24,560 nucleotides of DNA from Chloroflexi bacterium RBG_16_64_32 (GTDB taxonomy: Bacteria; Chloroflexota; Dehalococcoidia; SM23-28-2; RBG-16-64-32), in the NCBI GenBank assembly GCA_001795235.1, contig MGNZ01000136.1, positions 1 to 24,560 on the forward strand. Direction: 5' to 3'. Below are positions 3,846 to 15,494 of this stretch, piece after piece. The translations under genes were made by a program, and so were the position numbers. Under the pieces are notes generated by a model. The model was not told the origin of the DNA. It was given only the letters and a program-made list of their open reading frames with translations, and ran no database searches. Positions within the stretch are counted from its first letter, which is position 1. Each line of letters starts with the position of its first letter.

Positions 3846-5198
3846 ATGACCGCTGTCCGCCCTGTGTCGCTCTCCCGCTTCCGCTCCCTGCGGCTGACCA
3901 TCGCCCTCGTGTTCCTCATCCTGGGTGTGGCCGGCTTCGCCTGCGGCGGCGGTCCCGGAGCGCCGCCGGACGCCGTCCACGTCCTCACCGCCGACGGCGT
4001 AGTGGGGCCGGTTATGGAGCGCTATCTGGACCGAGGCATTGACGCCGCCGAGGACGAGCAGGGAGAAGCCGTGGTCATCCGTCTGGACACTCCGGGCGGA
4101 CTCATATCCTCCATGAACGACATTGTGAAGCGCATCCTGTCGTCGGAGGTGCCCGTTATCGTTTACGTTAGCCCTCAGGGCGGCCAAGCCGCCTCCGCCG
4201 GTACGTTCATCACCATGGCCGCCCACGTGGCGGCTATGGCGCCGGCCACCCGCCTGGGCGCCGCCACGCCTGTGGGCAGCGGCGGCGAGGAGATTCAGGG
4301 GCCGCTCGGAGACAAGGTGACAAACGACGCGGCGGCCCAGATCAAGGCCCTGGCCGAGCTCAGGGGCCGTAACCAGGAGTGGGCCGAGAGCGCCGTTCGC
4401 GATGCCGTCTCCGCCAATGCCACCGAGGCGCTGGCGCTCAATGTCGTCGATCTCGTCGCTAACGATCTGGATGAGCTGCTAAACTCGGTCGACGGCCGTG
4501 ACATTACCCTGTACTCCGACCGCGAGGTGACCCTCCAGACGGCGGACGCAGAAGTCGTGTTCAACAACATGAGCTTCGTTGAGCGCTTCCTGGACGTCAT
4601 CGCCGACCCGAACATCTCCCTGTTGCTGCTATCGTTAGGCTCTCTGGCTATCTTCATCGAGATCGTGAACCCGGGAGTGATATTCCCCGGTGTGTTCGGG
4701 GTCATCGCTCTGATCCTGGGCTTCTTCTCCCTCAGCGTTCTGCCCTTCAACTGGGCGGGCGTGGCCCTCATCATCTTCGCGTTCGTGCTGTTCGGACTGG
4801 AGATCTTTGTGCCCAGCGGAGGAATATTAGGCGGCGGAGGTGTTGTCGCCCTCATCCTGGGCGGCCTCCTCCTCACGAGCGGTAACCCGCCGGAGTTCCA
4901 GGTGTCTCGTTGGCTGCTCTTCGGGCTGGCTGCGGCCATGGGAGCGATTGTCATCTTCGTCCTGGTCAATATCATGCGCATCCGCATGATGCCGGCCCAG
5001 GTGGGCATAGAGACCTTCGTCGGCCACGAAGCTGTCGTCCGCTCAACTCTCGATCCTCAGGGATTCGTCTTCCTGGACGGGGAGCGCTGGACTGCTGAGT
5101 CGGAAGAGGGCACAATCCAGGAGGGCGAGCGCGTCGTGATCACGGAAGTCCACGGGCTTAGACTCAAGGTCAGAAAGCAAGAGCCGGAAGGAGGCTAG
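3846..5198 (+). CDS. nfeD: NfeD family membrane-bound ClpP-class serine protease (long form)
   Basis: LDTPGG, AASAG (catalytic Ser), DK..ND (Lys), multi-TM middle region, C-terminal OB-like domain (GERWTAES...V...GLRLKV); followed by an SPFH gene. Confidence 0.93.
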
Positions 5199-5200
5199 CT

Positions 5201-6064
5201 ATGTCCACCGAACTGGAGCCCGGCACGCCGACGGGCCCCCGATGGTTGTCAAAAATCCTCACCGCCCTGGGAATGGTGCTGGTCGTGCCCCTCTTCCCCC
5301 TGGCCGTCAAGATCGTGCCCGAGTACCAGCGGGGCGTCATCTTCCGCCTGGGGCGGCTGGTCGGCGCCCGCGGACCGGGGCTGTTCCTCATCATCCCTAT
5401 CGTGGAGCGGATGGTCATCGTGGACCTGCGCATCGTGACGATGGACGTACCGCGACAGGACGTCATCACCAGGGACAACGTCACGGTCAAGGTGGACGCG
5501 GTCATCTACTTCCGCGTGACCGACCCGGATGCCGCGGTCGTCAAGGTGATGGATTACGTTCGGGCGACCTCCCTCGTCGCCCAGACCACCCTCCGCAGCA
5601 TCCTCGGCCAGTCCGACCTGGACGAGCTGCTCAGTAAGCGCGAGCAGCTCAACCAGCAGTTGCAGAAGATCATCGACGACGCCACCGAGCCCTGGGGAGT
5701 CAAGGTGACCATCGTCGAGGTGCGCGACGTGGCTCTGCCCCCTGAGATGGTCCGCGCCATGTCCAAGCAGGCCGAGGCCGAGCGGGAGCGCCGCGCCAAG
5801 ATCATCCACGCCCAGGGCGAGTTCCAGGCGGCCGAGAAGCTGTCCGAAGCGGGCAAGATAATGGCCGCCACTCCCACCACCCTCCAGCTACGCTACCTCC
5901 AGACCCTCACCGAGATCTCGTCTGAGCACCACAGCACGGTCATCTTCCCGGTGCCCATCGATGTCCTCAGTCAGTTCGTGCGGGGCATGAGCGGCGGCGG
6001 CGGCACCGGACAGGGCGCCGGTCGCCGGCAGATTCCGGTGGAGGAAGAGGAGAAGAAGAGCTAG
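5201..6064 (+). CDS. SPFH/band-7 stomatin-like protein (slipin)
   Basis: [56 protein letters not shown]; adjacent to nfeD. Confidence 0.95.
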
Positions 6065-6066
6065 GC

Positions 6067-6105
6067 GGCCCGTCACCCCCTCAGCGCTCAGGGTGACGGC
6101 CCCCG
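6067..6105. repeat. Left copy of an imperfect direct repeat / hairpin (att-like)
   Basis: GGCCCGTCACC-CCCTCA-GCGCTCAGGGTGACG-G-CCCCCG; internal inverted repeat CCGTCACCC (6070-6078) / GGGTGACGG (6091-6099); matches 8757-8797. Confidence 0.7.
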
Positions 6106-6176
6106 TATACCATGCGCACTAATCTAATAGCGGGACCTCACACACCGTTCCGGAGTGCTCCCGAAGGGAGTCGCCC

Positions 6177-6452
6177 ATGGCTCTTCTGGAAGATAGGCGG
6201 CAACGCGCCCACCAAGGTGCCGGAAACGCGATCCAGACAAGAATTGCTCTCAAGGGAGAGGCTTGAACACTACATGGTGCATGACCCTATGTTTCTGGTC
6301 GAACCCGTGCTCGTGATCGGGTGCCGGGTTCCGATACGCTATACGGAGAACAAGCGTGACATTTTCGCTCTCGATCCCCAGGAAACGCGGCGGTCCTGAA
6401 GCTCAGCCGCGGGCAGCCGCAAGATCGAGTCGATATACATTATGGCCTTCAC
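6177..6452 (+). pseudogene. Frameshifted remnant of a NucS-like PD-(D/E)XK endonuclease (end approximate)
   Basis: SD GAAGGGAG plus ATG at 6177. Stitching frames gives MAL/WKIGG...RERLEHYMVHDPMFLVEPVLVIGCRVP...KRDIFALDPQ/GNAAVLKLSRGQPQDRVDI, resembling E..LE..I...P......LLIIGRQV......D.LALD..G..VIIELKRG. Two frameshifts, and the ELK motif is degraded to KLS. Confidence 0.5.
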
Positions 6453-6588
6453 AACCGCGTCAGCGATGTCCTCAAGACATCAGAGCGGCCCATAGGGGAA
6501 GTAGTCCGCAAGAATCACCCTCACGATCCATCGCGGCCAGTGAGGCCCTGTTCGTGGGCCCGCATCGCACGACACAGCACGTTCCCGA

Positions 6589-6617
6589 TTGAGAAATCTC
6601 TCTGACGGGCGGATAAT
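6589..6617 (+). promoter_or_regulatory. Sigma70-type promoter
   Basis: TTGAGA (6589-6594), 17-nt spacer, GATAAT (6612-6617) upstream of the 6676 ORF. Confidence 0.5.
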
Positions 6618-6675
6618 CACTCCGGGTAGGGTGGAACAGGACGACTGCGCAGCCGTATGCGAAGGGAGAAGAGCG

Positions 6676-6939
6676 ATGAAGTTCCTTGATCGCCTGTTGG
6701 GACGCAAAGAGGCATCCCCTGCTGAGGCGGAGGTAGCAGAACCAGACTGTCCGCATGTTGCGTTGGTCCCCTTTTGGGACTCGGCCGAAGATATCGGCGT
6801 ACACGAGAAGATTAGTCGTTACGAATGTGAGAGCTGCAAGGCGGCCTTTACGCGCGAACAGGGCGAGCAAATCCGCGTGGAGGGGGCGGAACGACTGCGT
6901 CTTTCCGAGAAGGACCGACGGGATCGCCTAGCGGAATAG
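6676..6939 (+). CDS. Small hypothetical protein (87 aa), putative zinc-binding (CPH...CESC)
   Basis: SD GAAGGGAG, ATG at 6676, MKFLDRLLG start, CxH plus CxxC ligand set, upstream promoter. Confidence 0.7.
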   Translation: MKFLDRLLGRKEASPAEAEVAEPDCPHVALVPFWDSAEDIGVHEKISRYECESCKAAFTREQGEQIRVEGAERLRLSEKDRRDRLAE

Positions 6940-7289
6940 GACCCCGACCTGCGTGGACGCCAAGCACCTCCGGCGACAGGCGCGCTTGCGGGCACGCACG
7001 ACGACCGCCTTTGCCGATCAGAGACCCCTGTAACCAGTCCGAGAGTGACTAACTCAGCTGAGAGGACAGTATGGTGTCTTGGGGTCGACTCCCAGGCGCC
7101 TCTTGGCGACCCATCTTGACCCCCTGGCTACAATGACGCTCAGAGGTCGCGGCAACCGCGTTCTGGATTGTCGTGTTCCCCCCCTCGGGATCCAGAGTCA
7201 GTCGCGAACTGGGACCCTGTCGAGACGTCCCGTTGGGTCCGCAGTCGGCAACTGGCAGAGCACAGATTTCAATCACGGCTTCAAACAAA

Positions 7290-7436
7290 TCAACGGTCAC
7301 TTTCCGCCAGCAGTGCGCGTATTATCATCGTTTGGAGAAGCTGGAGCGCTGGCCTATCCCCTGCGCTGCGCTCAAAAGCCTCCGCGAGAAGCTCGTCGGT
7401 AGTCCATGCGCTCAGATCCTTCGCCAAAATTCCCAT
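7290..7436 (-). CDS. Small hypothetical protein, 48 aa (below ORF-track cut-off)
   Basis: SD AGGAGG 5 nt upstream of ATG; MGILAKDLSAWTTDELLAEAFERSAGDRPALQLLQTMIIRALLAESDR*; same strand as the upstream small genes. Confidence 0.6.
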   Translation of the reverse strand: MGILAKDLSAWTTDELLAEAFERSAGDRPALQLLQTMIIRALLAESDR

Positions 7437-7481
7437 CAAACCCTCCTATGTGCCGTTCCGCAAGGTGCTAACGCCTTTCCC

Positions 7482-7706
7482 TTAGCGCATTGGTCTAACC
7501 CCCAGCATCTGCGCAGACTGAGGCGGTTGGGTGTGCCGAGCATATGACCCGCTAAAGCTGTTATTGAAGTTGCGCCGAGCGCCGCACCGCTTACAGACTC
7601 CCTCACTCACGGGACCATCTTGCCTTCCGATCAACCAATGGTGCGAGTCGCCGACGAAGCTAAGGCCGTCGACGGGAGGGCCGCTACCACTGCGGCTGTC
7701 TACCAC
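7482..7706 (-). CDS. Small hypothetical protein with HHW...CxxC putative metal site
   Basis: SHHWLIGRQDGPVSEGVCKRCGARRNFNNS; GTG start overlaps the RRM stop; start and SD uncertain. Confidence 0.5.
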   Translation of the reverse strand: MVDSRSGSGPPVDGLSFVGDSHHWLIGRQDGPVSEGVCKRCGARRNFNNSFSGSYARHTQPPQSAQMLGVRPMR

Positions 7707-8011
7707 CGTTCGCGACCGTAGTTGGAACCGCCCGAGCGCGCACCCGATCTGTCTCCGTCGCGCCGTGCAGGACGCGCCTCTTCCACCCTGATCACTCGTT
7801 CTCCCAGCGTCTTGCCATTCAACTCAGCGATCGCCCGCCGCGTTTCGGCATCGGTGGACATCTCGACGAAGCCGAAGCCTTTGGAGCGACCGGAGTCCCT
7901 ATCGGTGATGACGGTCGCTGACTGGACCGTGCCTGTCTGCTGGAAGAACGTCTTAAGCTCTTCGTCCGCAGTGTCGTATGAGAGACCGCCTACGTAAAGT
8001 TTGTTGGCCAT
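7700..8011 (-). CDS. RRM (RNP-1) RNA-binding protein
   Basis: RNP2 KLYVGGLSY, RNP1 RSKGFGFVEM, Gly/Arg-rich tail; start at ATG 8011 with SD AGGAGG. Confidence 0.93.
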   Translation of the reverse strand: MANKLYVGGLSYDTADEELKTFFQQTGTVQSATVITDRDSGRSKGFGFVEMSTDAETRRAIAELNGKTLGERVIRVEEARPARRDGDRSGARSGGSNYGRERW

Positions 8012-8152
8012 TGAGTATTCCTCCTCTTGCCCGGCTTTCATCTAGCCGAACAATGTGTTGTCAGTTCTTTTGGATGTTCCTAGCCGGTCCTGCTGCGGGC
8101 ACCGCCAACTAAGGTGGCTCCTGAGGCTACTGTGCTTGGAGCGGGCGGGCGT

Positions 8153-8434
8153 CCGAAGCAGTTACAGCGCTAGGCTGAACGACCCTTGCGGGCTCAATAA
8201 CGACCTGTGGCCGCTTCTTGCGATCGGGACGATTGCGGCGTGGAGCTAGCGCGGGTGTGACCGATAGCCAGCACCCCCGCTATCACGACGCGCATCTTCG
8301 CGTGACCTCCAGCAGCTATGGCAGCGTTTAGGTTGGTCGTATCCTAGTTCACCAGATAGCCCTTGTTCTTCGGCGCTGAAGGTGAAGGACAGACTGCAGT
8401 CGCGACAGGTGAGATTCTTGTCCTGGTAGCTCAT
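8153..8434 (-). pseudogene. Zinc-ribbon (zf-trcl-like) plus degraded CxxC-x17-CxxC protein; open frame 8246..8434
   Basis: SD GAGGAG, MSYQDKNLTCRDC..FTFSAEEQ...GY..PKRCHSC; in-frame TAG at 8246-8248 followed by LHAAI and frameshifted PD...QV..EP.QGS...CNCF resembling the usual second domain. Confidence 0.55.
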
Positions 8435-8535
8435 GGGTGATCTCCTCTCTTCCAAAGTTGGATCAGTTCGGGTCACCACGAGCCCAGGTCGCTAGGCTAA
8501 AGCCTGAGGGGGCCTAAACGTTCGCCACTGGCAAG

Positions 8536-8546
8536 AGTATACCACA
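8536..8546 (-). promoter_or_regulatory. Extended -10 promoter (TGTG-G-TATACT) for the minus-strand small-gene cluster
   Basis: TGTGGTATACT ~100 nt upstream of the 8434 start; the same TGGTATACT core precedes rnpB. Confidence 0.55.
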
Positions 8547-8756
8547 GTTGTCCGCAAGCGGACTCGGTCATGGGGTTACGGCCGTCGGAGCCAAACCCAA
8601 GACGAGACCATTGCGGTCCTAGAGGAGTCCGCCAGCCTCGCCGAGCCACGAGCGCTCTCTCCGTTGTCTTGACGCCCCGCCGGCTGGTTCCGGGCATCCC
8701 GATGGCCTCCATCAGCAGCCTCGGCCTATCGCGGTCTGCAGCCTGCCGTGAAGCAG

Positions 8757-9810: not shown

Positions 9811-11325
9811 TTATCCGCGCGCCGGGAACAGCTCCCGCAGCACCCGCCGGGCCACCTCGCGGTCATCGCAATCGTAGGAGCCGCCGGCCAGGTGCACCTC
9901 GCGCTCGTGCCCCTTGCCGGCCAGAAGCACCACGTCCTCGTCCACCGCCATCGCCAGCGCCTGCGCGATCGCCTCGGGGCGGTCGGGCACCGGGGCAAAG
10001 TCGTGCCCCTCCTTCCTGCCGGCCTCGCGCAGCCCCCGTGCAATCTCAGCTATGATCGCGTCCCGGTCCTCCGAGTACGGGTTGTCGTCCGTCACGTACG
10101 TGTAGTCAGCCAGCTCGGCCGCAACCTGTCCCATCGCATATCGCCGCTGTTTGTCCCGCTCCCCTATGCACCCAAACACAGCGATGACGCGGCCGCGGCT
10201 GCTGGCCCGCAGCTCCTCCAGCACCCGCCGCAGCGACTCCGGCGCGTGGGCGAAATCGACGACGACGCTGAAGGGCTGGCCCTCGTCCACCCGCTCCATG
10301 CGGCCCGGCGCCCCCGGCCAGGACTCCAGCCCGCGCACGATGGTCGGCAGCTCCAGGCCCAAGGCCAATCCGGCCGCCGTGCCTGCGAGGGCGTTCGCGA
10401 CGTTGAACGCTCCCGGCCGGGCCAGACGGATGTCCGCCTCTCCAGCCGGTGTCCGCAACCGGCACCGCGTACCCCATCCCTCCGGCCGCACGTCCGTCCC
10501 CGATACGTCCGCCTCCGTGCCACGCCCGTAAGTAGCGATCCGGGCGGCCGTAAGCGACTGAAAGTAGCGGTGGGCGGGATCGTCGGCATTGAGCACCGCC
10601 GTCTTGACAACGCCTTTGTCCAGAGCGCCATCCAGCATCTCGAACAGGCGCCCCTTGGCTGCCAGGTACTCCTCCCGCGAAGGGTGAAAGTCCACGTGGT
10701 CGCTGCCCACGTTGGTCATTACCGCCAGATCGAACTCGCATCCGTCCAGCCGGTGCAGGGCCAGCCCGTGAGAGGTGGCCTCCAGCACAGCGTAGCGACA
10801 GCCCGCCTCCACCGTCTGCGCCAGCATACCCTGTACCTGGGGCGCCTCCGGTGTGGTGAAGCGATCGCTATCCGCCAGCGCTCGCCCGGCCGCACGATTC
10901 TCCGCTGTGCTCATCAGCCCCACGCGCTCGCCGGCCGACTCCAGGACGTGAGCGATGAGATGGCTTAGGCTCGTCTTGCCGTCGGTGCCCGTAACACCGA
11001 TGACGATGAGCTGGCGCGCGGGCCAGTCGAAGAGAGCGGCAGCAGCAGCGGCCAGCGCTGTGCGCGTGTCCGGCACGACCACGCCGGGCACGTCCAGCGC
11101 TGCCCAGTCGGTTCGACGGTCCGCCTGCACCAGAAGCGCTGCGGCGCCGGCGGCCACCGCCTGGCGGGCGAAATCGTGGCCGTCGACGCGGAATCCCGGC
11201 ACGGCCACGAACAGGGCCCCCGGCCGGACCCGGCGCGAGTCATACTCGATCGCGTCGAAGCCGATATCGCCGGAGCCGATAATCTTCGCCCCTGGAAGGT
11301 GAGCCGCTAGTTCCCTCAGAATCAT
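9811..11325 (-). CDS. murE: UDP-N-acetylmuramoyl-tripeptide synthetase (Mur ligase E)
   Basis: YDSRRV, DGHDF, GVTGTDGKTS P-loop, TTPEA, EATSHGL, NVGSDH.DFH, DFAH, GERD, DDNPYSED, AGKGHE. ATG at 11325 preferred. Confidence 0.93.
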   Translation of the reverse strand: MILRELAAHLPGAKIIGSGDIGFDAIEYDSRRVRPGALFVAVPGFRVDGHDFARQAVAAGAAALLVQADRRTDWAALDVPGVVVPDTRTALAAAAAALFDWPARQLIVIGVTGTDGKTSLSHLIAHVLESAGERVGLMSTAENRAAGRALADSDRFTTPEAPQVQGMLAQTVEAGCRYAVLEATSHGLALHRLDGCEFDLAVMTNVGSDHVDFHPSREEYLAAKGRLFEMLDGALDKGVVKTAVLNADDPAHRYFQSLTAARIATYGRGTEADVSGTDVRPEGWGTRCRLRTPAGEADIRLARPGAFNVANALAGTAAGLALGLELPTIVRGLESWPGAPGRMERVDEGQPFSVVVDFAHAPESLRRVLEELRASSRGRVIAVFGCIGERDKQRRYAMGQVAAELADYTYVTDDNPYSEDRDAIIAEIARGLREAGRKEGHDFAPVPDRPEAIAQALAMAVDEDVVLLAGKGHEREVHLAGGSYDCDDREVARRVLRELFPARG

Positions 11326-11338
11326 CGCCACAGATAAC

Positions 11339-11356
11339 AACGGCCTCGCGGCCGTT
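11339..11356 (-). terminator. Hairpin after rnpB (weak terminator or processing hairpin)
   Basis: AACGGCC-GCGA-GGCCGTT with GNRA loop on the minus strand, followed by GTTATCT (poor U tract). Confidence 0.4.
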
Positions 11357-11371
11357 GCGTTTCCCTAGAGC

Positions 11372-11753
11372 GGCCCAGCAGACCTGTAGGCCGAGTTCTG
11401 TAGTCCGCCAGGGCGGACCGGTGACCATCAATCTAGCCCCGCCGTTGCCAGCGGGGTCCAGCGGCCAACCCGAGAGCGTCGGGCCGGGCGCCCTTTCCCG
11501 CCCGTGGCGGGAGCCCTCCTATTTGGCCTTGCTCCGCGCGGGGTTTAGCCGGCCTCCGGCTCACACCGGAGCCGGTGGGCTCTTACCCCACCATTTCACC
11601 CTTACCCCGATTGCTCGAGGCGGTATGTTTCTGTGCCACTTTCCGTCGGGTCACCCCGCCTGGGCGTTACCCAGCGCGCTGCCCGGTGGAGCTCGGACCT
11701 TCCTCCCGTCCCCGCCCAGGGCGGGAACCGGCGGTCACCCGGTCTGCTGGACC
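11372..11753 (-). ncRNA. rnpB: RNase P RNA, bacterial class A
   Basis: Minus strand has GAGGAAGGUCCGAGCUC near the 5' end, GAAAGUG.CACAGAAA, GGGUGAAA.GGUGGGGUAAGAGCCCACC, GGCUAAACCCC...GGAGCAAGGCCAAAUAGG, and ACAGAACUCGGCCUAC near the 3' end; P1 helix CCAGCAGACC / GGUCUGCUGG. Confidence 0.97.
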
Positions 11754-11759
11754 AACCAC

Positions 11760-11768
11760 AGTATACCA
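11760..11768 (-). promoter_or_regulatory. Extended -10 promoter of rnpB
   Basis: TG-G-TATACT ending ~6 nt before the predicted P1 5' end. Confidence 0.65.
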
Positions 11769-11857
11769 TCGTTGGGCTTGACCAGAACGTAACGCAAACG
11801 CGGCGGCGGCATCCTAAGCTTGTTCGTGCTGGGGTGAAGGCTCAGGAGGTGGATGAG

Positions 11858-12061
11858 GTGGAATGTCCCATGTGCCGCGGCAACCGGAGTTGCCCGGAGT
11901 GCGATGGCCTGGGCGAGGTGACCTGCGACGCCTGCGACGGCCGTGGCACTGACTGCGAGCAGTGTCACGGTGAGGGCCGCTACATTTGCAGGCCATGCGA
12001 TGGCACCGGCGCTTGCCCGCGCTGCAAGGGCGAGGGAGAGATGCAGCCGGAGCGACCGTAG
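11858..12061 (+). CDS. Stand-alone DnaJ-type CxxCxGxG zinc-finger protein (67 aa, 12 Cys)
   Basis: Six CxxCxG(xG) repeats: CPMCRG, CPECDGLG, CDACDGRG, CEQCHGEG, CRPCDGTG, CPRCKGEG; SD AGGAGG 8 nt before GTG 11858. Confidence 0.8.
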   Translation: MECPMCRGNRSCPECDGLGEVTCDACDGRGTDCEQCHGEGRYICRPCDGTGACPRCKGEGEMQPERP

Positions 12062-12064
12062 CCC

Positions 12065-12478
12065 CTAGCCGCGATCGAGCGCTTCGTTTGCCAGCTTGTC
12101 GGCGCGGCGGTTCCCGTCCCTCCGCACGTGCCGCACACTGAACGACGTGAACCGCCATTGCAGGTCTTTCACGCGTCCAAACAGACGCCGCAATGAGGGA
12201 TTACGTACCTTGTACCGCGAGTCGAGCTGGCGAACCACCAGCTCGGAGTCCATACGCAGCTCTACGTCGCGCGCACCCAGGGCCAGGGCCGCCTCTAGAC
12301 CGGCGATAGCAGCGCGATACTCCGCCTCGTTGTTCGTTGCCCGGCCAATGCGGCGGGACACGGTGTGGACCTCCTTCCCGGCCTCATCGAAGAGGGCAGC
12401 CCCGACCGAGGCGGGCCCGGGATTCCCGCGCGAGGCGCCGTCAACGTAGATGACCCACTTGGCGGCAGCCGCTCCCAC
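12065..12478 (-). CDS. rnhA: Ribonuclease HI (short RNase HI-like family)
   Basis: YVDGASRGNPGPA, TNNEAEY, DSELVVRQ, NRRADKLAN: D/E/D/D active site intact. Confidence 0.93.
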   Translation of the reverse strand: MGAAAAKWVIYVDGASRGNPGPASVGAALFDEAGKEVHTVSRRIGRATNNEAEYRAAIAGLEAALALGARDVELRMDSELVVRQLDSRYKVRNPSLRRLFGRVKDLQWRFTSFSVRHVRRDGNRRADKLANEALDRG

Positions 12479-13875
12479 TACAGCCTCAGGAAGACCTCGA
12501 CACCATCGTCGCGCACCACCACCCGCTCCAGGAGCTGGCGTAGCACCTCATAGCGCTCCGGGAACGTCAACTGCTCCCACTGCTCGCGGCACCGGGTCAA
12601 CGCATCCTGCTGCCGCTGCCGCCGTTCCGCCACCGAGGTCCGCTGCTGGGCCAGCCGCCGTCGCTCCGCGAGGGCTTCCTCGGTGGAGAGTTGCTCGCCG
12701 GCCACCTCAAGACCCAATGAACGAAGCCGTTCATCATTGATGCGACCGCTGGAGGCGGCATCCAGATATTGCTCGAGCCGCCGATCGAGCCGCCGCATCT
12801 TGTCTCGGAGCTTCTTCGTCTGTGCCTCGACGCGAGCCCGCTCATCATCCGCCACGGACCCCGGCATCTCCGCCTGGCCGCTCACAAGTGCGCTCTGTAC
12901 CTCGTCGTCCAGAGCCTCGGCGCGGCGGGTGTGGTAGTCACACAAGCTGCGGTTGGTGCGCGACTCGCACTGATAGTACCGGTAGAGTGCAGAGCGCATC
13001 TCCCCGTCGCTCCGTCTCTGCCAGCGCTGCCTGCGGGTGACGCCGATCATCTTGTTCCCGCAGTAGCCGCAGTGGGCCAAGCCGGAAAGCAAGAACCGAG
13101 ATGTCTCACGGACAACAGACTTGGGGCGACGCTGGTCGAGCTGCTCCTGCACGCGGCCGAAGTCCGCAGGCGAAATCAGGGGCGGATGGCTGGCCGGCAC
13201 TCTCACCCCGAAGCGACTGTAGGTGCCCACGTATGCCCGATTGCGCAGGATGTCCCGCACAGTCACCATGCTCCAGAGACCGCCGCGGCGGGTGTGCAGC
13301 GCTTCCTCGTTCAGGCGCCGGGCGATGCGCCGTATGCCCAAGCCATCCTTTATATACAGCCGGAAGATATATCGCACGACCGAACCCTCTTCCGGCACGA
13401 CCTGAAGCCGCCGCCGCGGTCCTACGCAGTACCCGTACGGCGGGCGGCCCAGAGCCTCACCCTTGACCGCCTTCCTGCGCATGGCGGCCCGCACCCGTTC
13501 TCCCAGGCGGCCGTTCTTGCGGGCTGCCGCCCACTGCGTCAGCAGCTCGGTCCCCGCGTCATCGCCATCGTCCATCGTCACCACGCTCGCACCCAAACTG
13601 GAAAGCTCGAAGTATCGCCGCGCCGACTCCGTCAGGTCGTCGCCCAACCCTGCCAGATCAGGCACGGCCACCAGCATAAACCCACGCTGGCGCTGATTGC
13701 GGAGGAACCCCACCAACTGCTGGAAGCCTACAACTTCATCAGGCATCTGAGTGGATTCGAGGAAGACGGCCGCCGCTTCATAGCCGTTGCGGCGACAGAA
13801 CTCCAGGAACGCCTTGCTCTGCTCCGCCAGCGGCATCTTGTCCTTCCGCTCCCTGAAGTAGCCTATCGCCCGCAT
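12478..13875 (-). CDS. Large serine recombinase-family protein (resolvase, recombinase, zinc ribbon, coiled coil), apparently catalytically inactive
   Basis: GRPPYGY, VRYIFRLY...IARRLN...W....VRDILRNRAYVG, HPPLIS, LLSGLAHCGYCGNKM, YYQC...C. N-terminal YFRER replaces YxRVS; AGLGD replaces DRLxR. Confidence 0.88.
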   Translation of the reverse strand: MRAIGYFRERKDKMPLAEQSKAFLEFCRRNGYEAAAVFLESTQMPDEVVGFQQLVGFLRNQRQRGFMLVAVPDLAGLGDDLTESARRYFELSSLGASVVTMDDGDDAGTELLTQWAAARKNGRLGERVRAAMRRKAVKGEALGRPPYGYCVGPRRRLQVVPEEGSVVRYIFRLYIKDGLGIRRIARRLNEEALHTRRGGLWSMVTVRDILRNRAYVGTYSRFGVRVPASHPPLISPADFGRVQEQLDQRRPKSVVRETSRFLLSGLAHCGYCGNKMIGVTRRQRWQRRSDGEMRSALYRYYQCESRTNRSLCDYHTRRAEALDDEVQSALVSGQAEMPGSVADDERARVEAQTKKLRDKMRRLDRRLEQYLDAASSGRINDERLRSLGLEVAGEQLSTEEALAERRRLAQQRTSVAERRQRQQDALTRCREQWEQLTFPERYEVLRQLLERVVVRDDGVEVFLRL

Positions 13876-13876
13876 G

Positions 13877-14578
13877 TTAGTTCACCAGCAGAATCCGCTC
13901 GCAGTTAACACACCGGACCAGGCCGAGGCCGGAGCGCGCCTTTTGGAGGAGGGACATGGGCAAGGTGATGCGGCACCCCCGACAGAGGCCCCGTTCGACT
14001 ATGGCCACGGCCGGTCCCTGCCAACGCTCCCGGAGAGCCTGGTAAATGCTAAGGGCCGCTGCGTCCATGCCGTCCACCTGACCGTCACGCTTGGCCTCAA
14101 GGGCCTCAATGTCTTCCTTGAGCGTCGCCTGCGTGGCCCTAAGGGAAGCCTGGCTGGCCTCCCAGGAAGCTTCGATCTCCTCCAGCGCAGCCTCCGCATC
14201 CTTGAGGGCGGTCTCAGCCTCATCCAGCTCCAGCATTACCTCCAGCAGGGCGTCTTCGCGCTTCCTCAACTGCGCACGCAGTGAGGTAAGGTCGGCCTGC
14301 AAGTCTTCCAGTTCTTTGGGGTTGCGCACGTTACCAGCGTAGAGCCTCTTTTCAATATCGCTGGCTTTTCCCCGCACCTCTTCCGCCTCCCAGTCCAACC
14401 CCTTCTGACTATTCCGCAGCTGCTCAACCTTCTCCCGACACGGGCCCACCCGCTCGCGGGCGGTGATTAACTCCTCTATCTCGCCAAGCTGGGCCTCAAC
14501 GTCGGTCAGACTTGCCACGGTACCATCGATAGCCAGATCAGTTTCCTGAAGCGCATACAGCTCAGCAGCGGTGGTCAT
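13877..14578 (-). CDS. Coiled-coil protein with C-terminal C4-type zinc ribbon (DUF164-like)
   Basis: Long heptad region, then AVAIVERGLCRGCRITLP...CVNCERIL; start at ATG 14578 (M..AAELYALQETD). Confidence 0.88.
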   Translation of the reverse strand: MTTAAELYALQETDLAIDGTVASLTDVEAQLGEIEELITARERVGPCREKVEQLRNSQKGLDWEAEEVRGKASDIEKRLYAGNVRNPKELEDLQADLTSLRAQLRKREDALLEVMLELDEAETALKDAEAALEEIEASWEASQASLRATQATLKEDIEALEAKRDGQVDGMDAAALSIYQALRERWQGPAVAIVERGLCRGCRITLPMSLLQKARSGLGLVRCVNCERILLVN

Positions 14579-14643
14579 CGCAAAAGAGCAAGGGCGGCCT
14601 CTCGGGACGGTTGATGAACGGGCTGGACAATGCCTGCAGCGTG

Positions 14644-14672
14644 ATAATAGACTTAGCCCTGGGCGTTGACAA
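14644..14672 (-). promoter_or_regulatory. Sigma70-type promoter for the zinc-ribbon/recombinase/rnhA operon
   Basis: TTGTCA (14672-14667), 17-nt spacer, TATTAT (14649-14644). Confidence 0.6.
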
Positions 14673-14750
14673 GGTGCCAGCACGCGTCCAGCGTGAACAT
14701 CTTGGCCAAGTTCTGTCCGGCACGGATGAGACCGTCAGGGTTTTGCTACG

Positions 14751-15281
14751 ATGCGATTTCGCGTTTCCCAAGAGTTGCGCCAGGCCGTCGGAACGGAGTT
14801 CTCCCTTGAGCTCCGGCGAGGGAGTCTATTCCTGGACGACCAGGTCGCCCTCTCCGACCTGGAGGGCAGTGCGCGCCTCCTCAGGACTGACCGCGGCCTC
14901 CTTGTCAGCGTGCGCGCCCGCGCCCTCATCGGCGGCACGTGCAGCCGCTGTGTGAGCCCTTTGCAGTCGCCCATCGAATTCAATCTTGAGGAGGAGTTCA
15001 TCCCCATCGTGGATCCGGTCTCCGGCGCACACATCACTGCCGCCGAGGCAGAGGAGAGCTTCGTCATCGACGCCGGGCTAACGCTGGACCTGGGCGAGGC
15101 CCTCCGCCAATATGCGCTCATCTCTTCGCCCAGCAAACCGCTCTGCCGGCCGGACTGTGCCGGCATCTGCCCCACATGCGGGGCCAATCTAAACGATGGC
15201 CGTTGCACCTGCCCTCCGCGGATAGACGCGGGGTGGGAGGCCCTCGCCGCCATCAACACCAATGACCAGGAAGGGAGTTGA
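14751..15281 (+). CDS. yceD: YceD/DUF177 family protein
   Basis: CSRC, LCRPDCAGICPTCGANLN...C.C, D..W..L; immediately upstream of rpmF. Confidence 0.9.
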   Translation: MRFRVSQELRQAVGTEFSLELRRGSLFLDDQVALSDLEGSARLLRTDRGLLVSVRARALIGGTCSRCVSPLQSPIEFNLEEEFIPIVDPVSGAHITAAEAEESFVIDAGLTLDLGEALRQYALISSPSKPLCRPDCAGICPTCGANLNDGRCTCPPRIDAGWEALAAINTNDQEGS

Positions 15282-15284
15282 CGG

Positions 15285-15494
15285 ATGCCCCCTCAGCCGA
15301 AGAAGAAGACCTCCAAGTCGCGCCAGGGGCGAAGACGGGCCCATCTGTCCTTGGTCGCGCCGCACTTGGTCGTCTGTCTCCAGTGCCGCTCGCCGCGGCC
15401 CTCGCACCAGGTGTGCCCCGTCTGCGGTACCTATCGCCGCCGCGATGTCTTGAACGTAGCCGCTCGTGCAGCCCGCCGCTCCGGCGGCCAGTAG
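15285..15494 (+). CDS. rpmF: 50S ribosomal protein L32 (Zn-binding form)
   Basis: MPPQPKKKTSKSRQGRRRAH, CLQC...HQVCPVCGTY. Confidence 0.96.
   Translation: MPPQPKKKTSKSRQGRRRAHLSLVAPHLVVCLQCRSPRPSHQVCPVCGTYRRRDVLNVAARAARRSGGQ

Follow-up and report, generated by a model that had tools for sequence, protein, structure and literature searches.

A degenerate large serine recombinase conserved in a housekeeping operon of Dehalococcoidia

Why would bacteria keep, in the middle of a housekeeping operon, a gene for a large serine recombinase (LSR) in which most of the canonical catalytic residues have been replaced? This question is raised by a stretch of DNA from Chloroflexi bacterium RBG_16_64_32 (contig MGNZ01000136.1; here called the window, which means the whole 24,560 nt that were analyzed and to which the coordinates refer unless another locus is named), where such a gene, encoding 465 aa, lies on the minus strand between the genes for a COG1579 protein (also known as DUF164) and RNase HI. 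We consider it very probable that the encoded protein is the descendant of an integrase that has been domesticated by its host and is no longer catalytic, and we discuss what such a protein might do instead.

Degeneration of the active site

The residue equivalences were obtained by aligning the N-terminal profile of the family to gamma-delta resolvase and by directly aligning the window protein to P0258 (a compact, active relative), and both approaches agree. The N-terminus of the window protein reads MRAIGYFRER, with an arginine in the position of the nucleophilic serine, and A75-G76-L77-G78-D79 (AGLGD) stands where D-R-x-G-R is canonical. Both replacements had been pointed out in a preliminary description of this DNA (as Arg at position 10 and AGLGD instead of DRLxR) and are borne out by the two alignments. 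The window protein thus keeps two of the eight canonical catalytic positions (R8, S10, D36, R45, D67, R68, R71, and R125), namely R8 and R125, the full pattern being R-R-E-V-A-G-D-R (Table 1). The ten nearest active LSRs, on the other hand, all have Y6, R8, S10, D36, R45, R68, and R71, and nine of ten also have D67 and R125. In Tn3 and gamma-delta resolvase, the serine and these arginines are each essential.

Table 1. Residues of the window protein, their canonical equivalents, and the residues found at these positions in 223 distinct family sequences
Window residue	Canonical residue	Family (of 223)
Y6	Y6	Y 218
R8	R8	R 202
R10	Ser nucleophile (S10)	T 77, R 35, S 29, A 25, others
E40	D36	D 198
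V48	R45	R 44
A75	D67	D 23
G76	R68	R 10
D79	R71	R 17
R127	R125	R 160, K 53

Across the family, the loss takes the form of a mosaic. Position 10 varies freely (G, K, D, P, and Q are also seen, next to R and A), and S10, R68, and R71 occur together in none of the 223 distinct family members. In a sample of 80 species, about one-quarter carry Ser10 and about another quarter Thr10, always without the Arg68/Arg71 pair. Serine loss across Dehalococcoidia, which the preliminary description had named as a point to check, is therefore not uniform. One subclade (L032, L033, L030, L019, and L027) has kept D/E-R-L-G-R/K together with Asp or Phe at position 10. Of its members, L032 keeps seven of the eight catalytic residues, and L033 keeps D67, R68, R71, and R125 (VDRLGRD), its R45 position being unresolved. 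Other members read YFRES or YFRET and have lost the arginines, and the deep-branching members in a tree rooted with active Chloroflexota LSRs carry K, P, D, E, R, G, T, or D at position 10. The simplest reading of the tree is that the founding lineage of the family already lacked the nucleophile, that the arginines then decayed independently in most lineages, and that Ser10 and Thr10 are secondary. This mosaic amounts to a natural experiment on which parts of an active site matter once the chemistry is gone. Polar residues of the former pocket (Y6, R8, E9, Q19, D40, R52, Q53, R87, and Y88) are conserved, and the N-terminal domain is therefore likely to be more than a spacer.

A separate observation concerns Cys27 in helix A (FLEFC), which is invariant in class-wide alignments (80 of 80 in the 80-species sample) and pairs with a lysine in the direct alignment to P0258.

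Domain architecture and fold

The complete LSR architecture with DNA-binding, zinc-ribbon, and coiled-coil parts, previously recognized by eye, is recovered by Pfam domains, an AlphaFold2 (AF2) model, and Foldseek alike. Pfam Resolvase (PF00239) matches residues 3-140 weakly (28.7 bits, above the cut-off of 23.3), whereas Recombinase (PF07508) matches residues 161-249 with 79 bits and Zn_ribbon_recom (PF13408) residues 262-329 with 46 bits. In the AF2 model, for which 46 orthologues served as input (mean pLDDT 86.3), the resolvase-type beta-alpha core is followed by helix E (124-138), the recombinase domain, the zinc ribbon, and a long helical insert (343-435). Its top PDB matches in Foldseek are full-length serine integrases (SPbeta SprA 9dxh, PhiC31 9tep, Bxb1 9iu2, and A118 4kis), and the N-terminal domain by itself resembles the catalytic domain of TP901-1 (3bvp, TM 0.71) and gamma-delta resolvase (2rsl, TM 0.69).

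The recombinase domain, which is very rich in arginine, is the most constrained part of the protein, and alignments show almost no variation across the family in helix E and the linker that follows it. The zinc-ribbon cysteines (Cys269, Cys272, Cys303, and Cys312) are invariant or near-invariant in the family alignments. Gly377, which forms the turn between the first two helices of the coiled-coil insert, is invariant among closer relatives and nearly so class-wide.

Distribution, descent, and selection

More than 1349 relatives came up in a word-indexed search, and the best 120 of them are all about 465 aa long and 61-99% identical; the named ones among these all come from Dehalococcoidia or Chloroflexi metagenome-assembled genomes (MAGs). 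Matches at E <= 1e-10 were obtained in 210 of 301 sampled Dehalococcoidia genomes, and about 150 of the 301 have a single best match each, above approximately 250 bits (the unpublished genome G244 enters only these tallies and one row of the 48-locus context set described below, and none of the conclusions depends on it). The match score drops with taxonomic distance, from 754-830 bits within the taxonomic family to 250-650 bits within the class. Other Chloroflexota classes yielded only ordinary LSRs, which score 219 bits or less, with one or two per listed genome and mostly in longer frames of 474-793 aa; the sole N-terminus checked there (L067) reads YTRIST. The corresponding motif is YARVSS in L069 and L070, two active LSRs of Dehalococcoidia genomes that lack the family. 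A scan of one genome per species gave at least 555 loci, and the best 80 of these all belong to uncultured Dehalococcoidia/Chloroflexota MAGs, whose isolate names point to groundwater, peatland, and lake. When the tree is rooted with active Chloroflexota LSRs, the family forms a single clade on a long branch, and judged by these sequences the clade appears restricted to the class Dehalococcoidia.

All domains are under purifying selection. The ratio of nonsynonymous to synonymous substitution rates (dN/dS) of the whole gene is 0.12 (dS 0.41) and 0.08 (dS 0.51) in two unsaturated pairs. Within unsaturated pairs, it is 0.04-0.05 for the block of residues 123-250 (helix E and recombinase domain), 0.10-0.20 for the N-terminal domain, and 0.09-0.15 for the coiled coil. 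The pairwise divergences of the recombinase and the COG1579 protein correlate (r = 0.69, a value reached by 0 of 2000 permutations), which fits joint vertical descent, and their mean pairwise identities are 45% and 37%, respectively. The preliminary description had proposed an integrase-derived, catalytically disabled, and domesticated protein, and this view is upheld by the single clade, the vertical descent, and the dN/dS of 0.08-0.12. Synteny extends over the orthologues across Dehalococcoidia, purifying selection is seen in the pairs compared, and instead of close orthologues with YxRVS at variable locations, a fixed locus was found without a single combination of S10, R68, and R71.

Two deviating forms were noticed along the way. 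The member L038 (genome G138, 4498-5946) has lost several of its zinc-ribbon cysteines (CGDGGSRM... and YYQNVARTNQSVGEYH), while the remainder is conserved. L046-L048 (family f3, in the window's order) measure 407-423 aa, have about 45 coiled-coil residues deleted, carry GYFPG at the N-terminus, and, with scores of 310-407 bits, have evolved much faster than the remaining members from that order.

Origin from a compact integrase

Among 1.84 billion representative proteins that were searched for the origin of the family, its degenerate members span the scores from 685 to about 245 bits, and directly below them follow compact LSRs of 459-491 aa that carry the full catalytic set and whose N-termini resemble that of the window protein (MRAVGYFRVS..., MRAVAYYRVSTQRQ...). 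One of these, P0258, is 29% identical to the window protein over 407 residues and is encoded beside a Cro/CI-type helix-turn-helix repressor and small open reading frames (ORFs), that is, in a phage-like context; the 1.5-kb contig of another, P0270, holds that gene alone. The active LSRs of Dehalococcoidia genomes that lack the family adjoin tRNA genes. Judging from the nearest active relatives and their contexts, the ancestor was therefore presumably an ordinary integrase of a mobile element. A compact LSR of about 465 aa would have been captured from such an element between the COG1579 gene and RNase HI in an ancestor of Dehalococcoidia and would have been inherited vertically since.

Synteny and lineages without the neighboring genes

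The gene order of the window is preserved on contigs of 2.4 Mb and 407 kb, where identity is 64%, and 48 loci from across the class share it as well. In an independent context set of 80 species (where the denominators differ per gene), the COG1579 gene lies directly upstream of the recombinase in 76 of 78 loci, RNase HI directly downstream in 57 of 77, and rnpB downstream on the same strand in 52 of 64. The housekeeping locus is thus fixed across at least 130 loci, and the gap from the COG1579 stop to the recombinase start typically measures 1-8 nt. Three complete or near-complete genomes without the family have the COG1579 gene followed directly by RNase HI, with rnpB next in the two that were scanned; the recombinase gene therefore either was inserted into a gene pair of greater age or has disappeared from these lineages. 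A neighborhood of DUF164, rnhA, and rnpB has also been noted in other phyla (PMC3372290). The preliminary description had likewise mentioned that zinc-ribbon/RNase HI genes near rnpB are conserved in other bacteria. No published report of a recombinase-like gene inserted after a COG1579/DUF164 gene was found.

The link to the zinc-ribbon gene and rnhA, which that description had stressed, is frequent by these counts but not obligatory. The recombinase is kept in families f41 (five genomes) and f9 (three genomes), whose genomes are 92-100% complete and in several cases consist of a single contig, and a profile search detected no COG1579 homologue in these eight genomes (control genomes score 222 and 175 bits). 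An obligate partnership with COG1579 is ruled out by these two families, and the protein should therefore have a function of its own. In f41, the recombinase gene stands alone opposite yceD; rnpB and then murE follow within about 30-80 nt in three of seven genomes, where both the COG1579 gene and RNase HI are gone from the locus, and there is no rnpB nearby in the other four. In f9, RNase HI follows the recombinase, whose N-terminal domain is no longer recognizable as Resolvase.

Some loci deserve a separate mention. The f9 variant (L052 and L159-L161) measures about 412-442 aa. In L052, an unknown 117-aa ORF precedes the recombinase, and RNase HI and a metallophosphoesterase come after it; an inverted repeat, GTGCTAA(A/C)ATTT(A/G)CGAAGCAC, lies upstream of the gene in L052 and L159. 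In L033 (genome G089), a signal recognition particle (SRP) RNA (1172-1437; Bacteria_large_SRP, 158 bits) is located directly downstream of the recombinase in the place of rnpB.

Proposed function and alternative explanations

Read from its sequence, the family is in our judgment probably a domesticated, disabled LSR that acts as a site-specific DNA-binding or architectural factor without cutting; we infer DNA binding or synapsis because the DNA-binding domains are intact and highly constrained. The protein would dimerize through helix E, and its recombinase and zinc-ribbon domains would recognize a long pseudo-symmetric DNA site in the manner of integrases, while the bound DNA would not be cleaved. 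The conserved coiled coil may pair dimers, bridge sites, or contact a partner, and docking on the DNA backbone may have been retained by the N-terminal domain. In most lineages, the presumed co-expression with the COG1579 factor and RNase HI suggests a role in transcription or RNA-DNA handling. A recent preprint predicts that the mycobacterial ML1638 and the chlamydial CT398 bind the beta' subunit of RNA polymerase (bioRxiv 10.64898/2026.07.15.738315). That the recombinase acts with a COG1579/RNA polymerase module is nevertheless a tentative proposal, and a strict dependence on either COG1579 or RNase HI as partner does not exist. An equally tentative and broader picture, to which we would give less than even chances, is that of a class-wide host factor that marks or bridges chromosomal sites through integrase-style recognition and coiled-coil pairing, mostly together with an RNA-polymerase-associated zinc-ribbon factor and RNase HI.

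Several results weigh against a DNA-binding host factor of this kind. No DNA target was found among dyads at the locus, motifs upstream of rnpB, or patterns of synonymous-site conservation. A scan of 11300-15300 for att-like or operator dyads gave only two weak inverted repeats, located inside yceD and inside rnpB; upstream of rnpB, no motif particular to recombinase-carrying genomes was seen, only the common -10 box; and no window along the three operon genes stands out clearly in synonymous-codon conservation (the lowest values coincide with Cys/Tyr-rich stretches, whose residues have few codons to choose from). Ser10 or Thr10 is present in about half of the 80 species and DRLGRD in one subclade, which makes residual chemistry conceivable in some lineages. 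Finally, a physical partnership with the COG1579 protein is unsupported; co-folding of the two window proteins gave a score of 0.00, which counts neither for nor against binding.

The former DNA-binding domains might instead have become an interaction platform through which the protein, as an adaptor or regulatory subunit, joins the COG1579/CT398-like factor and thereby RNA polymerase. In favor of this, only 1-8 nt separate the two genes at nearly every locus, their divergences are correlated, both products have long coiled coils, and the above preprint predicts beta' binding for ML1638 and CT398. We nevertheless consider this role unlikely, given that the eight f41 and f9 genomes keep the recombinase without a COG1579 homologue and that the recombinase is the more conserved of the two proteins (45% vs 37%). 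Somewhat less likely again is a binder of RNA or RNA-DNA hybrids that works with RNase HI and RNase P RNA in R-loop recognition or the handling of stable RNAs, as might be read from the persistent adjacency to both genes, from the three f41 genomes where rnpB still follows after about 30-80 nt although the COG1579 gene and RNase HI are absent there, and from the very Arg-rich recombinase domain. However, the order CT398-like/RNase HI/rnpB also occurs in recombinase-free genomes, consistent with its predating the insertion, and outside the class (PMC3372290). Moreover, rnpB has its own -10 box everywhere, including recombinase-free genomes, the four other f41 genomes have no rnpB nearby, and no report of an RNA-binding LSR domain was found in the literature.

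In Dehalococcoidia, active LSRs are commonly found beside tRNA genes, and a protein that retains the DNA-binding, dimerization, and coiled-coil parts could serve as an immunity decoy, blocking LSR-borne integration by occupying an attB-like site or by poisoning incoming integrase tetramers. Defence genes usually have a patchy distribution and a fast turnover, though, and the class-wide vertical inheritance, the housekeeping locus, and the very slowly evolving DNA-binding domain do not match that picture; the nearest active relatives are moreover only about 29% identical, and mixed oligomers are therefore unlikely. We accordingly regard a decoy as improbable. Even less credence is given to residual DNA chemistry (nicking, recombination, or a topoisomerase-like reaction) through Thr/Ser10, Tyr6, or a serine in the loop after strand 1. 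Such chemistry could be read from the near-invariance of Tyr6 and Arg8, the 77 threonines and 29 serines among the 223 residues at position 10, the subclade that keeps D67, R68, R71, and R125 (L032 and L033), and the purifying selection on the N-terminal domain, but position 10 varies freely, Ser never occurs with R68 and R71, the window protein is left with two of eight catalytic residues in a set of which the serine and arginines are individually essential in Tn3/gamma-delta resolvase, and the gene never moves. A pseudogene that decayed only recently, or the integrase of an element that still moves, would account for the degenerate motifs, but is as good as ruled out by the frame of 465 aa that is intact class-wide, the dN/dS of about 0.1, and the single copy in a fixed housekeeping context without cargo or att sites. 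Among these explanations, a noncutting, site-specific DNA-binding or architectural factor is the one we favor. The roles in R-loop handling, replication, and the blocking of phage integrases that the preliminary description had put forward are speculative.

Organization of the locus

In the window, yceD-rpmF-fabD-fabG occupy one strand, and the COG1579 gene, the recombinase gene, RNase HI, rnpB, murE, and birA the opposite one (Table 2). The recombinase gene occurs once in the genome and has the same GC content as its neighbors, which are housekeeping genes without cargo; together with the lack of an att-like inverted repeat in 11300-15300, this agrees with the earlier remark that cargo and att-like flanks are absent. 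The tight junctions reported before are equally found on re-reading: the COG1579 stop TAA (13879-13877) is separated by a 1-nt spacer from the recombinase ATG at 13875, and the last base of the recombinase TAG (12480-12478) doubles as the first base of the RNase HI start codon GTG (TAGTG, a 1-nt overlap). No terminator-like sites were found in the scanned region 11300-15300.

Table 2. Positions of the features discussed in the text (window coordinates)
Feature	Position	Strand	Basis or remarks
LSR gene, predicted catalytically dead, 465 aa	12478..13875	-	stop TAG 12478-12480 included
Resolvase-fold N-terminal domain, aa 1-122	13510..13875	-	Pfam Resolvase; fold match 3bvp; alignments
Helix E and linker, aa 123-145, ...RVRAAMRRKAVKGEALGRPP	13441..13509	-	dimer helix/DNA-arm of serine recombinases
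Recombinase (DNA-binding) domain, aa 146-250	13126..13440	-	Pfam PF07508; near-invariant columns
Zinc-ribbon domain, aa 251-340, Cys269/Cys272/Cys303/Cys312	12856..13125	-	Pfam PF13408
Coiled-coil insert, aa 341-435; helices 343-375, 381-411, 415-435	12571..12855	-	AF2 model, alignments, dN/dS
C-terminal helix and strands closing the zinc-ribbon domain, aa 436-465	12481..12570	-	
COG1579/DUF164 (CT398/HP0958-like) gene	13877..14578	-	Pfam CT398_CC, Zn_ribbon_9
RNase HI gene, 137 aa	12065..12478	-	Pfam RVT_3, RNase_H; NCBIfam
rnpB (RNase P RNA, class A)	11371..11750	-	Rfam RF00010, 269.8 bits
Operon promoter, sigma-70 type, TTGTCA-17-TATTAT	14644..14672	-	upstream of the COG1579 gene; conserved across the order

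The COG1579 product consists of a coiled-coil hairpin and a C4 zinc ribbon (C-terminal CxxC...CxxC). It probably starts at Met36 of a 268-aa ORF, which gives 233 aa, and its orthologues are all about 233 aa long. It matches PF24481 with 58 bits, PF02591 with 25 bits (just below the cut-off of 29.1), and the NCBIfam model CdsZ with 49 bits (below the equivalog cut-off), and its four cysteines are invariant in 38 orthologues. RNase HI matches PF13456 (89 bits), PF00075 (50 bits), and two NCBIfam RNase H models (139 and 133 bits, the former being the RNase H half of a bifunctional RNase H/acid phosphatase), and its catalytic carboxylates are visible by eye.

The segment 14624-14672 contains two overlapping divergent promoters that face each other, the operon promoter and, on the plus strand, TGGACA-18-TAGACT, which serves yceD-rpmF. 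The block AGTCTATAATCCCGyCGCAGGCrTTGTCCA is conserved order-wide and unique in the genome. The element CGCAGGCATTGTCCA, located just 3' of the operon -10 box and likewise conserved order-wide and unique in the genome, was considered as an operator and rejected, as it coincides with the -35 box (TGGACA) of the divergent yceD promoter, which is the ordinary explanation for its conservation. A TATACT-type -10 box of its own lies 7-9 nt upstream of rnpB in nearly all loci, including those of recombinase-free genomes.

Between RNase HI and rnpB, a small Cys-rich ORF (11633-12061, plus strand) runs convergent with the operon; its C-terminal approximately 70 aa contain four DnaJ-type CxxCxGxG-like repeats with weak matches to Pfam DUF7895 and DnaJ_CXXCXGXG, and a 72-aa gene is found at the same place in L002. 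The distance of rnpB from the recombinase gene is about 700-770 nt in loci with the Cys-rich insert and about 460-540 nt otherwise. Elsewhere in the window, the region 6100-8750 has a lower GC content (0.60 vs 0.65-0.70) and small ORFs only, including an RRM_1 RNA-binding protein (7700-8041, minus strand) and a treble-clef zinc-finger protein (8246-8479, minus strand); the other ORFs of this region have no Pfam match.

Significance

To our knowledge, hosts recruit serine recombinases only as active enzymes (for example, invertases and developmental excisionases). Literature searches found no published work on this recombinase family or on an inactive or domesticated serine recombinase, and a 2022 review of mobile-element exaptation covers only active serine recombinases and no inactive case (PMC8987985). 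What may be new here is the residue-by-residue mosaic anchored on active relatives, the partner-free lineages, and the nearest active LSR type. If the proposed reading is true, no exaptation of a catalytically dead serine recombinase would have been described before, and the protein would represent a novel type of bacterial transcription or chromosome-architecture factor that arose from a mobile element. A permanently dead yet strongly conserved LSR in hundreds of species would exemplify the path from integrase to pseudoenzyme host factor, and the family would offer a natural, noncutting DNA-binding scaffold for long sites. It could also throw light on the COG1579/RNase HI/rnpB cluster, which is poorly understood although many bacteria have it.

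Comparison with known systems

The large serine integrases of phages and integrative and conjugative elements (ICEs), including SPbeta SprA/YokA (9dxh), A118/LI (4kis), Bxb1 (9iu2), and PhiC31 (9tep), share the domain order and fold of the window protein. In contrast to these, the window protein lacks the nucleophilic serine, R45, D67, R68, and R71, and its gene lies off any mobile element, without att sites or a directionality factor, as a single copy that is vertically inherited in a housekeeping operon. The compact active LSRs represented by P0258, P0269, and P0270 (459-491 aa), which come from metagenomes, are similar in length and N-terminus, but carry the complete YxRVS...SG..R...DRFGR set.

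Recruitment by the host is likewise seen for the LSRs XisF (in Anabaena) and SpoIVCA (in Bacillus), which have kept their catalytic set and still excise DNA elements, whereas the window protein is predicted to be catalytically disabled and is not accompanied by such an element. The family is not represented by a model in NCBIfam, where the best match of the window protein is XisF, with 72.7 bits against a cut-off of 375. The COG1579 gene upstream can be likened to HP0958/FlgZ, CT398/CdsZ, and MSMEG_4306/ML1638, which combine a coiled-coil hairpin with a C4 zinc ribbon. A precedent for the proposed role is Tn3/gamma-delta resolvase, which binds DNA in an architectural or regulatory fashion without cleavage at its accessory sites II and III or when it represses its own promoter. 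There, one active enzyme performs both tasks, whereas in the family described here catalysis would have been lost permanently.

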